Positions 18,429 to 40,335 of a DNA stretch of 64,000 nt are shown here, piece by piece. The DNA lies in assembly GCA_951406725.2 (NCBI GenBank), contig OX597827.1, positions 66,340,001 through 66,404,000 of the forward strand, written 5' to 3'. The translations under genes were made by a program, and so were the position numbers. Below the pieces are notes generated by a model that was not told the DNA's origin, did not search any database, and saw nothing but the letters and a program-made list of their open reading frames with translations. Within the stretch, counting starts at the first letter, position 1. Each line of letters opens with the position of its first letter. Source of the stretch: Octopus vulgaris (lineage: Eukaryota).

Positions 18429-18653
18429 ATATATATATATATACAGGCACATACACGTACACGCCCGCATGCACATATATAAATATACATATGCCCCTGC
18501 AGGAATACATCTCTTCTGTTACTTATCTATTTAACTATCTTCTGTCTCTTACCCCACTTTCTCTCCCCAAGATATATGTATATACACACGCACACACATA
18601 CACACACACATATATATACACATGCATACATACATGCATACATACATACATAC

Positions 18654-24862: not shown

Positions 24863-24867
<5 letters not shown>

Positions 24868-25068
24868 GGAAAGTTTACGAAAATAAACAAAAGACGAAGG
24901 CAGGTGGTGCACGAACAAACAGATGTATTAGTATAGCGCTCAGGAATAGAAAAAGTATTTTACGTTTTGAGCCTACGCTGTTCTACAGAAAGATACACAG
25001 AAAAAAACAAGGAGAGAAAACAATGTGTGTAGTAGCTAACGATCTATCATGGCGTCTGACTTCGGACG
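24863..25068 (-). mobile_element. Short element inside (TA)n with decayed hammerhead-like core (PLE-related?)
   Basis: Flanked by (TA)n on both sides; minus strand CTGTAGAA-cagc-gtag-gctc-AAAACGTA; ends TTTCCCTT against (TA)n. Confidence 0.45.
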
Positions 25069-25197
25069 ATATATATATATATATATGTATATCGATAAAA
25101 ACGGTAAGAAAACAAAAGAAAGAAATACCTCGATATTATGTAAATAGAGCTATTTATCTGTAAATGTAATATGTGACAATTATTCTGTAGCCATGAT

Positions 25198-25528
25198 GTG
25201 AGGGCGCGTGGCTTAGTGGTTAGGGCATTCGGCTCATGATCGTAAGGTTGTGAGTTCGATTCCCGGCGACGCGTTGTGTCCTTGAGCAAGACACTTTATT
25301 TCACGTTGCTCCAGTCCACTCAGCTGGCAAAAATGAGGTGTAATTGTCTTTCAAAGGGTCAGCCTTGTCACTCTCTGTGTCACGCTGATTATCCCCGAGA
25401 ACTACGTTAAGGGTACACGTGCCTGTGGAATGCTCAGCCATTTGCACGTTAATTTCACGAGCAAGCTGTTCCGTTGATCGTATCAGCTGGGACCCTCGTC
25501 GTCGTAACCGGCGGAGTCTTTTTTTTTA
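25198..25528 (+). mobile_element. tRNA-derived SINE, family C (full length)
   Basis: A box TGGCTTAGTGG, B box GTTCGATTCC, GTGTCCTTGAGCAAGACACT body; TSD AGCCATGAT at 25189-25197 and 25529-25537. Confidence 0.92.
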
Positions 25529-25534
25529 AGCCAT

Positions 25535-25595
25535 GATAATATTCCAAGTTTCGGTTGTCGGAGCGCAAATACACGCTGGCATCTCTTCAGTTATC
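25535..25595 (-). ncRNA. Hammerhead ribozyme motif
   Basis: Minus strand: GATAA-CTGAAGA-gatg...caacc-GAAAC-ttggaata-TTATC. Confidence 0.6.
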
Positions 25596-25627
25596 CGGTC
25601 ATCAGAAACAATGCTATCCGATGGCCA

Positions 25628-25688
25628 GATAACTGAAGAGATGGCGGCGTGGATTTTCACCTCGGCATCCGAAACTCGGACTTTTATC
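25628..25688 (+). ncRNA. Hammerhead ribozyme motif
   Basis: GATAA-CTGAAGA(25633-39)-GATG...CATC-c-GAAAC(25671-75)-tcggactt-TTATC; stems I and II pair. Confidence 0.65.
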
Positions 25689-26299
25689 ATGGCTACCGAA
25701 TACTTGTCACATACACGCAGGAACACCCACGAACACCCACGAGCATGTGTATATATATTTGTGCCAGTATACATTTATGTATGTGTGTGTGTGTATGCGT
25801 GTGTATTAGTCCTTTATGACAAACTGCAATACATTATCCACTTGAGAGTACTGAGAGGGTTCAATAAAATAAGTGATTTGATTTTTACTGGATCAGTGAC
25901 AGCGTCAAGAAATTTTGAATCTGAAAATAATGGTTTTTTTATGATTTTTCACCCGAACGCAGAGAATATAATAGCAATAAAATATCTTGTTGTAAGTTGA
26001 CAAAGAATTATGTGCACTTAATAAGAGAAGGTGAAGCAACTCATAAATATCAGGAAATTACAAAAAGGAAAGATATGTCATATGTATATAATAGAAATAA
26101 TATTTCAAAAATTTCATTTTGGGAACGACATGCGGGTTAACAGAAACTTAAGGGAAAGAGAATTTCTTCAAGCGAAATAATGAATACGACACGAATTTGA
26201 AATGAGTTCTTATAGCTGACATATTGTCAAGAAATAAAATATATACTATTACAAGGTACTCGGAAAGTATGGTGTATATTTAGATATTGATAGAAAGAT

Positions 26300-36737: not shown

Positions 36738-38899
36738 GTGGTTGGAATATACTAAAATTACAATGCTGGTAATACAAAAATAATTTTTCAAAATGCCGCC
36801 TGACATTCCGCCCTCTTTCTCTATTTATCTTAGATCATATCCGCTTCATTAAATTACATTGTGTAACTAATTATATCGAATCAATAGTAGGAATATGTTT
36901 TTAGAACATTGATATATATAACCCCAGGACGTGTTTAAATGAAAACACAAAGGATCAAAGGCAATGTATAAATGAAGATCCCATTTTGTTAACCGATATA
37001 ATGCGTAAATAAACACACTATCTATTACTTCTGACTTTTGTTGTAAATATTACTCTCTTTGGTCATTGCTTTTTACTTACTAACTGGGAAACGAACTACG
37101 AGGGCTGAGTGCAAAAAAATGCTGTAAAGATTTTCATATAATTCGGATTATTTGTAACAGTGCCTTCCGATGAGGCTTATTTTGACTTCTCGTAAGTCAA
37201 TGTTTACTTACAGATGGGCAAGTACTAAGCTTACAAAAAAAGCTCGTCGATAAAAATGTTTACTTTCATTAAAAAAATGTTCACTGGCTTTGATATATAT
37301 ATATATATATCAAAGGTTTTTCAAACGATGAATAGTTTGCGTAAACCATGGTCCGTTTTGTTCTCTTACTTTATTATCATCTTATAATCATCTCATAATA
37401 ACGACTTTTATGACTCGTATTACTACCTCAGTCAATCTAAATGTATATATTTGTCGTTACCTGCTATAAATAGCCTTTTTTATTTGCAATGTGCATTTTC
37501 ATTGGATTTTCATATTTTACTCCTATATATATATATATATATATATAATTATTAATATTAGGGAAATTATTTCCGAGTCCACAGGGGAGAGAAATTCAAT
37601 TTCTCGCTGTATTATATACATATATATATATAGATAGATAAGTTTAAGAGACAGTTGTTTTTATTATTATTAACTTGTCATTTTCGACAAATTAAATTAC
37701 CCGTCGAGCACCGCTTGCTGTAATCGATTTATCACACCCCACTAAAAGGTTGCTGCCCTTGTACCACAACTAAAAAATACCGACTGTGATATATAGCGAA
37801 GAGAATTTAGTTGGTTACGAGAAAACGTGAAAGAAATGTGGAGAATATTCTTGAAACTAAGCTACTTGCCCTGGATAATTCGAAAGATCATTTCGGCAGA
37901 TTCCACGATAATTTAGCATCGAAAGCGCGAGCAAATATCCTATGGATTAATTATGTAATATCATAAACGCGTTTATCACAACATTTTTTATCAATATTCA
38001 TTTAAAATTTGTATTGTATTAATATTTGGATTTGTGTCACACTGCTATCAAATTCATATTTTATTCTTCCGAAATATACAGCTAAATACGAGAAAAACAG
38101 GTAAAAAAATAATAGTAAATTGAACATTAATATGCCTTTCCGCAGTGTCAGCCACTCTCCTTGTAGCGTTATAAAAATTCATTAAACTGATCATTTCCTT
38201 ACTTAATTACATAATGATATTTGGGTGAAGTTTTTAGACAAGGTGTGGCATTTTTTTGATAATTATTCATTTTTAATTGTAAAATTGTAAACAAACGAGA
38301 CCATATCTAATTGATAACGACTCGCTTGTTTACAGTATAAAATGAAAAGGTAAATGAATTATAAATGTAAAAATAAAAAAAAGAAAGTGAAAAACTCCAA
38401 TTATTTCTAATGCTACAAATTTTATATGCCAGATTTCGACTTGAATATCATTAGAGGAAAAACAGATATAAAATTTACAAAAATGAAAAACGAAGGAAAA
38501 TATATTATTTGCTTAATTATAGATCTAACTAAGGTGTGTATTAATCATAATAATTAATTCCTGATATTTGAATCTATGTATACAATGATTCAAAATTCTT
38601 TACATTATCGCTTCGCTAACCTTTGGTTGGTAGAGTTGTAGGTGCGCCATTGTGACACTCAACTTGCTCTGAAGATATTTACAGCTGATGAAGCACGGTA
38701 TTTCTACATCGCTGGTCGCAGCTGATTACTTTTAGAAAGCAGAAAAACTGCCATTCAGAATGATAGAACCATATATTATTGATTGACACTGAAAGGAATA
38801 AGTGCGAGGTTGACATGTTATTTCACATGTGCAACTTAAATGACATATGTGACAACTCTTACATTACTTTCAGTGAACAGCTCTTACTTTAATCATCAC

Positions 38900-39335
38900 A
38901 GCATTAATATAACTAAGTCTATCGTTGATCTTCCTATAAGGTTTATAAATGTTCTTATTTAGATCTAAGGATACACCTAGGAAATTGACAACCGTCAGGT
39001 TGGTATCTGTAGTTATGCTAAGACCGAAAGTTTTCATTAAATGGATAATTTCCTTCCTACACTGATCCTGTGCTGGTCCATTGGTATTGGCTGTTAAATG
39101 GCGAAGTATAAGTCAGGAAAAATCTTACCCAACGTATCGAGTAGGAATAATCCCATATGATCGCATATGCCTGCTCCATCATATGACCCCATGCTCATAT
39201 CGAAAGCTCTCTCTGTATCGGTAGTCTTGACCCACTCTGTCTACTCGCAGAAGAGTAAAGTCTTTCTAGCATAGAAGATTATGTCCTTATCCTGTGTACT
39301 GATTTCTATGAATTCGTTTGCGAAGGTGAATGCGT
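38900..39335 (-). pseudogene. Penelope-like (Neptune-type) reverse transcriptase fragment, inverted relative to the rest of the element
   Basis: Minus: DIIFYARKTLLF..EWVK..AFDMSMGSYDGAGICDHMGLFLL ... NGPAQDQCRKEIIHLMKTFGLSITTDTNLTVVNFLGVSLDLNKNIYKPYRK; YRDD region deleted. Confidence 0.88.
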
Positions 39336-40335
39336 TATCTAGCAGTTCCTACATCAACAGCAGTGGGCATTGCGTTCTTTGCGATATGTAAAGATAGCAC
39401 ATCTGCAAAAGCAGCCACATGTCTAAATTCAAGAACTGAACTTTTCGGTTCATGTCCATACGTGGCTAAATATTTGTTACGTTTTTGGTCCCCCTCCCCG
39501 ACATTACAGATAGGAGATGCTTCCAATATTGTGTCCACGTACATGCTTTTTATCTCTATATTTTTCCTTATGTTTCTTATATATTTTGTACTTATATTTT
39601 TTATATATTTTTAGATAATTATAGAGATATTGTTTCATGGTTTTATTGCACATATATTTTTAGACATGATTTTTCTGTATTCTCTCTTCCACCTTGCATT
39701 TTTCCTGTGCTTATATAGACGTTTATATGAAATTTTTGTGCGCGTGTGTGGATGTGTGCGTGTGCGCGGGTATGTGCGTATATAAGTGTGTGTGTGTGCG
39801 TGTATGCAAGTATGTGCATATATAGACTTGCTTTACTCAAATTCCTATATTTTTACACTTTTTTACACATTTTTCTGTATTTTGACTTTAGTCCGGTTTT
39901 TTGTTGTGCATGTGCGTATATAGACGTGTGTATGAACCGTTGTGTGTGTGTATGTGTGTGCGCGTGCGTGTATGCGTGTATGCATATATATATATATATT
40001 GGCGAATGTGTGGTTGAGCATGTGCGTGTTTTAATTGTGGGTGTGTGAGTATATACATATAGGCGCATGTAAGTGGGTGTGCGGTCGCTTACACGATTAC
40101 TATGAACATTTTTACTCCCTTATCTTTACTCTTACCCCTTACTTAGCGGTCATTTTCACAGTATTTTTTCGATGGCCCGATAACTGAAGAGATGCCGTCG
40201 TGCGTTTGCGCTCCGACATCCGAATCTCGGAGTTTTTTCATGGCTACCGAATAATTGCCACATATTATATTTACAGATAAATTCCTCTATTTACATAATA
40301 TTGAGGTCACTTTCATTCTTTTGTTGTATCATATT
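39336..40335 (+). mobile_element. PLE ORF C-terminus, 3' region and hammerhead-bearing pseudo-LTR
   Basis: YINSSGHCVLC...CLNSRTELFGSCPYVAKYLL resembles the Neptune C.LC..EK...LN.R.EL...C.H..K.LL end; 40168-40325 is homologous to 25095-25712. Confidence 0.75.
40179..40240 (+). ncRNA. Hammerhead ribozyme motif (GAAA mutated to GAAT)
   Basis: GATAA-CTGAAGA(40184-90)-GATG...CATC-c-GAATC-tcgga-GTT-ttttc. Confidence 0.6.

Follow-up and report, generated by a model that had tools for sequence, protein, structure and literature searches.

The window analysed here is a stretch of 64,000 nucleotides of Octopus vulgaris DNA (contig OX597827.1, positions 66,340,001 to 66,404,000), in which an inverted repeat lies at 25 kb. 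The features of this locus are given below; the module referred to is the 3'-terminal sequence of a second element at 39-40 kb in the same window, and L060 is another genomic copy of that element.

25066-25094, no strand: (TA)n microsatellite, the target site flanking the 3' end of the long arm (read from the sequence; the same junction is found at most other copies)
25095-25197, minus: long arm, distal part (module about 168 to about 96; 87% to L060 2481-2611)
about 25095-25143, minus: tail of the long arm, ~48-50 bp (aligned with the 40-kb copy)
25198-25528, plus: young tRNA-derived SINE, with the target-site duplication (TSD) AGCCATGAT as a direct repeat at 25189-25197 and 25529-25537
25529-25616, minus: long arm, proximal part (hammerhead-like motif at 25529-25600)
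25617-25713, plus: short inverted arm, tail-less (module about 6 to about 104; 88% to L060 2414-2508; motif at 25623-25694)

Positions 25095-25616 of the minus strand therefore constitute a full 3'-terminal module, interrupted by the SINE, with its 3' end abutting the (TA)n tract at 25066-25094, and the plus-strand sequence 25617-25713 is a partial inverted copy of the first ~100 nt of the same module. The inverted repeat described in an earlier, sequence-only reading of this DNA was real, as an inverted-repeat search of the window returned two arm pairs, 25529-25606 with 25617-25694 (78 nt, 81% complementary) and 25170-25197 with 25686-25713 (28 nt, 93% complementary). The motif string reported from both arms was also recovered, CTGANGA-N(18-40)-CGAAAC giving two matches in the window against 0.06 expected; a match at 18508 was set aside as a chance match. 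The apparent loop of 10 nt was found to be the 5' end of the minus arm (TAGCATTGTTTCTGATG...), so the two arms abut at 25616/25617. The long and short arms were only 83.5% identical, and the short arm stops about 16 nt before the tail-less end that is usual elsewhere. The long arm had been called a solo pseudo-LTR; this description was abandoned, the arm being an insertion with extreme 5' truncation that has a (TA)n junction of its own, and not the remnant of an LTR.

The short arm is followed by 36 nt of unrelated sequence (25714-25749), in which GAACACCCAC occurs twice, and then by a short TA run. On the other side of the locus, a repeat at 24865-25060 (..GTTTACGAAAA..AACAAAAGACGAAG..CAGATGTATTAGTATA..) recurs beside (TA)n at other loci, including L005 and L009, where it is downstream of their (TA)n. 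The (TA)n microsatellite seems to be a common landing site of several elements.

The SINE within the long arm belongs to a very young family, tRNA-like at its head and T-rich at its 3' end. A genome search gave 2212 first-look candidates, of which 40 were scored, and all 39 of the other scored copies shared its boundaries (~25192-25198 to ~25522-25541). The tRNA-like head (25204-25273) scored 25.1 bits, below the gathering score of 29, and no tRNA gene was detected in the SINE by ARAGORN. Removal of the SINE and one copy of AGCCATGAT made the 28-nt arm pair contiguous with the 78-nt pair, which confirms the previous observation that the pairing of the arms extends once the SINE is taken out. 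The SINE was 97-99% identical to its relatives and the arms are far less alike (83.5%), and so the SINE came later; the inversion predates it, as had been proposed.

The second locus, at 39-40 kb, was made up of the following features.

38903-39348, minus: inverted ORF fragment, residues 271-426 of protein P0001, with a frame break (tblastn; unit 908-1376 at 78%)
39349-40327, plus: 5'-truncated element with the ORF's C-terminus, a long 3' UTR and the terminal module (collinear with L060)
39365-39503, plus: ORF residues 667-716, part of the 5'-truncated element
40160-40327, plus: terminal module (hammerhead-like motif at 40174-40245)

Positions 39349-40154 and 40147-40327 were collinear with L060 1501-2330 and 2390-2571, and the copy at 40168-40325 was 90.7% identical to L060 over 182 aligned positions. 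The sequence CTGAAGAGATG was found exactly at 25580 (minus), 25633 (plus) and 40184 (plus); the two 25-kb arms and the 40-kb copy belong to one sequence family. Twenty-nine other copies were found by means of the 3' piece of the ORF; in 18 of these the module came after it in the same orientation, 567-899 bp downstream, and a 19th carried a partial module. These data, with the collinearity of L060, identify the module as the true 3' terminus of a 5'-truncated element and argue against an independent insertion at 40168-40325; the earlier claim that this sequence terminates the element stands, module and ORF being contiguous. Searched for in the 2.8-Gb genome, the module (40160-40327) yielded 1920 first-look candidates (40 scored), and its copies end ...CATTTCTATCA and then run into (TA)n. 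Through a protein fragment of the window (38870-39112, minus), copies were reached at loci L043-L046 whose frames are open over 717 aa (720 aa in L045), some in tandem arrays with a period of 2585 bp. The ORF of these open-frame copies is followed on its own strand, ~190 bp downstream, by a related module, and the sub-family of the window copy has a longer 3' UTR. The junction at 39348/39349 represents a second kind of inversion, in which inverted residues 271-426 abut a direct piece that begins near residue 662, so that its two arms derive from different portions of the element. No recognisable 3' terminus was seen where the inverted piece ends, at 38903, and a weak look-alike of the tail-less end lies at ~38838-38860 (minus).

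The element had been described as a Neptune-type Penelope-like element (PLE). In the portion of Craig et al. (2021, PMC8557442) available to us, the hallmarks of the Hydra clade are given as RWK, DKT, a linker of the form CxCX5C, a GIY-YIG core free of cysteines and C-terminal CxxC and CxH, while the Neptune clade is given a zinc-finger-like linker, CX2-5CxxC, and has CCHH within its GIY-YIG core. The tandem unit of 2585 bp with its single ORF of 717 aa (P0001) agreed with the short (<3 kb), single-ORF form of the Hydra clade. P0001 contained RMRWKAFFFD (...KRMRWKAFFFD...) and LFSDKT (...LFSDKTKNLY...), supplying RWK and the DKG-to-DKT change, and the linker CSCRNKELC, which is of the form CxCX5C. 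Inspection by eye showed a GIY-YIG-like stretch (IIYEATV...YVGLTE) with no Cys between its blocks and, near the C-terminus, CGLC..E (RCGLCDME) and SCPH, which correspond to CxxC and CxH. Insertion into (TA)n, a further character of the Hydra clade, was seen in the window (25066-25094) and in other copies. Neither the CX2-5CxxC linker nor the CCHH cysteines of the GIY-YIG core that mark the Neptune clade was found in P0001. Sequence searches of P0001 against Pfam, NCBIfam and PDB returned no reverse transcriptase or endonuclease domain, and both calls accordingly rest on the motifs read by eye and on the published classification, with look-alike clusters in the Atlas that carry GIY-YIG and RVT_1 as a lead only. 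The PLE origin of the element was upheld and the clade was corrected from Neptune to Hydra; judged by these sequence characters, it is a Hydra-clade PLE resembling Hydra-1_Obim of Octopus bimaculoides.

Hydra-1_Obim is recorded in the available text of Craig et al. (2021, PMC8557442) as an element of 2507 bp that inserts into (TA)n and has a sense hammerhead near its 3' end. As far as that text extends, the two elements share a short unit (2585 bp here, 2507 bp there), a single ORF, a predicted C-terminal GIY-YIG endonuclease, the (TA)n target, the RWK and DKT motifs, the CxCX5C linker and the cysteine-free GIY-YIG core. Their proteins have long identical stretches, compared by eye only with the sequence given there. 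A hammerhead-like motif in sense orientation close to the 3' end, opening with CUGAAGAG-AUG and having U at the predicted cleavage site, is likewise common to both. However, set against the descriptor in the same portion of the source, all three helices (I, II and III) differ in sequence here; helix II, of about 11 pairs, is the longer one and is closed by a G-C pair, after which a C is bulged. The entry, as available, is annotated 'no pLTR', whereas tandem arrays occur in the family of the window. By these differences in sequence the window element is to be placed in a different family or sub-family from Hydra-1_Obim. Literature searches on octopus PLE hammerheads and on both-strand priming turned up no additional paper on the PLE family of the window.

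The hammerhead-like motif reads, from 5' to 3', GAUAA (helix I), CUGAAGA, a long helix II (closed by G-C, with a bulged C), GAAA, ACU-CGG-AGU (helix III), U17 and UUAUC (helix I). This layout is predicted to be that of a type-I hammerhead and resembles the Hydra-1_Obim descriptor in the published text to which we had access. The core boxes CUGANGA and GAAA with H17 were present in both 25-kb arms and were not in the 40-kb copy. In the long arm (25529-25600) helix II contains A.A and helix III C.A, and position 17 is A, a permitted H; in the short arm (25623-25694) both core boxes are intact, helix III has a C.C mismatch and the predicted cut is at 25683/25684. The 40-kb motif (40174-40245) has GAAU instead of GAAA and a U.U in helix I, and each of the three window copies has some defect in its core or a helix. 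Genome-wide, the canonical boxes were exact in 1867 copies. Pairing was assessed on 58 copies, chosen by a core-based regular expression and with the C next to G12 bulged; 95.2% of cells paired in the named structure compared with 31-51% for slid 3' partners. Covariation was not in excess over shuffles, the observed values being reached by 324-390 of 500 shuffles. The centroid fold of a near-intact copy contained helices I and II. Z-scores of thermodynamic folding, -0.3 to -1.6, were uninformative. No Rfam hammerhead model matched at its gathering score, and none matched the window copies or the near-intact copy at E up to 10. The motif is accordingly termed hammerhead-like; it is a predicted hammerhead. 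Two loci (L123:230-345 and L124:270-400) represent a sub-family with a different outer helix I (UUGCC/GGCAA as against UGGCC/GGCUA), and one compensatory change (G.U to U-A) was seen by eye in outer helix I between sub-families.

The motif also invites comparison with the minimal type-I hammerheads described from the terminal repeats of PLEs by Cervera and de la Pena (2014, PMC4209133), whose paper, in the part available, also records motif pairs on opposite strands 100-700 bp apart. Within that part, the two agree in type-I order, a short helix I, a long helix II and location in a terminal repeat, and in a short helix III with a near-palindromic loop (ACUC-G-GAGU) that might pair between copies. 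They differ in the side of helix II on which the unpaired nucleotide falls, 3' here and 5' there. The proposal that fold-back hammerhead repeats are tied to PLE integration was correct and was already in print (PMC4209133, PMC8557442, PMC11167929).

The arrangement of the two arms at 25 kb was not confined to the window. The head-to-head motif pattern with a gap of 10-150 nt was found at 221 loci (control 0), 160 of them with a gap of 60 nt or less, and the direct arrangement at 100-400 nt gave 27 matches, 24 of which were in one array. Among the first 100 matches listed of a young variant of the motif, neighbours within 4 kb were head-to-head in 26 cases, direct in 7 and tail-to-tail in 1. 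A tail sample of 29 loci, selected solely through the module's final 65 nt, gave a similar picture: 15 had an inverted partner directly upstream, and 24-25 of the direct arms were 180 bp or shorter. In another set of 29 loci a direct second copy was found at none. Head-to-head pairing is the usual insertion form of this family.

The two arms of such pairs end differently. The terminal arm runs to ...TATCA and (TA)n, and its partner stops about 50 nt earlier, at ...TTTACAGATA and (TA)n. All 14 short-range inverted partners in the tail sample ended at reference positions 2506-2545, mostly near 2526, and none reached 2574; the ~50-bp tail was thus absent from all 14. The short arms of 15 tight pairs ended within about 3 nt of ...TTTACAGATA in 10-11 cases and were followed by (TA)n in 11-12. 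As short and full arms alike end in (TA)n, both outer ends are microsatellite junctions and just one of the arms has the ~50-bp tail. Two loci depart from this rule, L028 with two full arms and L090 with two short arms. An inverted, 5'-truncated copy adjoining the 5' end, with a tail at one end only, is typical of PLEs, and (TA)n targets are known (PMC8557442); this architecture was found both in the window and across the family.

These ends bear on whether a single cDNA might have folded back at its truncation point and been copied back, by snap-back or template switching and without priming on the second strand. Many junctions are indeed near-perfect palindromes with 0-30 nt between the arms, and those at 25 kb abut at 25616/25617. 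Copying back should, however, stop at random or reach the very end, and the short arm instead ends at a defined site by (TA)n; the truncation points of the two arms also often differ widely, as at L121 (2406 and 2523). We regard this explanation as unlikely.

The pairs might also have arisen by two independent insertions, a later copy having entered the same microsatellite, or homed against the first copy, in the opposite orientation. The low similarity of the 25-kb arms would fit this, as would their helix II sub-variants, the long arm resembling the 40-kb copy (TTTGCGCTCC) and the short arm being of the GGATTT.CAC.TCGGC type, and (TA)n tracts attract other repeats too. At the long arm of the 25-kb pair, 12 of 26 arms from other loci were as close to it as its own partner. 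Across the family, partner arms were nevertheless more alike (mean 92.2%) than arms of different loci (88.8%), and in 8 of 14 loci no more than 3 of 26 foreign arms equalled the partner; the 25-kb pair has decayed too far for such a difference to appear. Many of the arm differences are CpG-type transitions, which are to be expected from age, and orientation is one-sided throughout the genome, both in the neighbour counts and in the head-to-head pattern with its empty control. Independent insertion appears rather improbable as the origin of the pair.

We therefore favour, as the probable account of 25095-25713, two 5'-truncated 3'-end copies of a Hydra-clade PLE placed head-to-head in a (TA)n tract, likely formed in a single integration primed on both strands and later split by the SINE. 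The pattern of the family matches both the published anatomy of PLEs and the in-vitro behaviour of the Poseidon protein PAc of Anolis, from which we infer one double-ended integration. In vitro PAc cleaves both strands and extends them; its reverse transcription begins from either of two internal sites, which enclose the tail (Frangieh et al., 2024, PMC11167929). Its targets are AT-rich, and the one-tailed arms with both ends in (TA)n seen here are what its biochemistry predicts; insertion in vitro does not require the hammerhead (PMC11167929). PAc belongs to another clade and its start sites lie inside the 5' region of the ORF of a tandem transcript (PMC11167929). A both-strand mechanism for the window family would accordingly be an extrapolation from one in-vitro study of another clade.

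Under this mechanism both microsatellite strands would be cut by the element protein. From one of the 3'-OH ends cDNA synthesis would set out at the terminal site, from the second at an internal one, and the tail would be the stretch between these two start sites of reverse transcription. Synthesis of each cDNA would break off inside the structured hammerhead region or shortly beyond it, and host repair would join the two in the middle. In this reading the hammerhead-like motif is a passenger of the 3' module. No target-site duplication was readable in the microsatellite at the 25-kb pair. The one-arm tail lends genomic support, from outside the clade studied in vitro, to both-strand priming with two start sites. 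The locus itself is an ordinary, textbook-style PLE insertion, covered by the published architecture of PLEs, their hammerheads and the octopus Hydra-clade family.

About 20 of 45 5' ends clustered in two windows of ~15 nt, about 11 just 5' of the motif at a U-run and about 9 in the stretch from the 3' base of helix II to the predicted cut, at 2-15 nt upstream from the latter. Only 1 of 29 direct arms started within 2 nt of the predicted cut. This distribution, off the cut, fits a polymerase stalling at structure and not templates cut by the ribozyme, and ribozyme-cut RNA was rejected as the template; a stalled polymerase would also suit the snap-back route considered above. At L094, around 1410-1460, the helix II hairpin is deleted exactly between its bases (GATG|ATA|AAACTCGG), as expected if the polymerase had skipped the hairpin.

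Non-LTR retrozymes reportedly consist of tandem hammerhead repeats, as Cervera and de la Pena are said to have described in 2020. At the 25-kb locus the units are not arranged head-to-tail in tandem, the form by which retrozymes are recognised. According to the part of Li, Clavereau and Pollet (2026, 10.64898/2026.07.22.740005) available to us, non-LTR retrozymes are short hammerhead-bearing sequences from the terminal region of a PLE, in which they resemble the module, and one tandem array of the module also exists in the genome. Unlike these elements as presented in that part of the source, the 25-kb locus is inverted and not tandem, and direct copies are rare in the family. The tandem array lies on another contig, at L122:1197-5728 (G000:C16:47252696-47257227), and consists of a 109-bp unit repeated 41.6 times with 96% matches; the unit is the tail-less module, from just 5' of the hammerhead-like motif to ...ACAGATA. 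By its sequence the array is best described as a putative retrozyme-like satellite derived from the element of the window.

The young and old sub-families differed in the core of the motif. CCGAAGA, with C at core position 4, together with U instead of C before G12, was found in 3889 exact, mostly identical copies, and both features were present in all nine motifs of four loci with an intact ORF (L043:5690-5910, L044 with four motifs, L045 and L046). In the old sub-family CTGAAGA was present in all 15 motifs of the loci found through the 3' piece of the ORF, and a derivation of CTGAAGA from CCGAAGA by CpG decay was on this count rejected for that sub-family. The lineage that looks most recently amplified is off the core and the decayed lineage is canonical, which would mean either an undescribed, tolerated variant or a disabled ribozyme. 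We put forward, as a tentative possibility, that the young lineage with open ORFs of 717 aa (one of 720 aa) has departed from the core, which the old decayed lineage keeps, either through such a tolerated variant or as a PLE thriving with a disabled ribozyme, and that its head-to-head habit has seeded hundreds of near-perfect hairpins, a potential input to small-RNA pathways. The altered core of the youngest sub-family is relevant to the question whether transposition of PLEs depends on their hammerheads.

A hairpin of this kind might be taken for a functional unit in its own right, that is a fold-back ribozyme, a miRNA or siRNA precursor, or a foldback or MITE DNA transposon. Matches to miRNA models were obtained, for example MIR1027 at window 25542-25677, with 33.3 bits against a gathering score of 150, and all such matches were far below their gathering scores. 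The unequal arms are those of a retroelement 3' module with microsatellite junctions, one of them contains a SINE, and in a read-through transcript the sense motif would pair with its antisense copy, which opposes the ribozyme fold. A functional hairpin was for these reasons considered very improbable, and the double-ended PLE integration remains the preferred reading of the locus. Head-to-head pairs of this family mimic miRNA hairpins or foldback transposons, which is a warning to annotators, and they are a likely source of false miRNA annotation. A younger pair, at L015:1604-1751, matched MIR1319 with 74.4 bits against a gathering score of 116.6.
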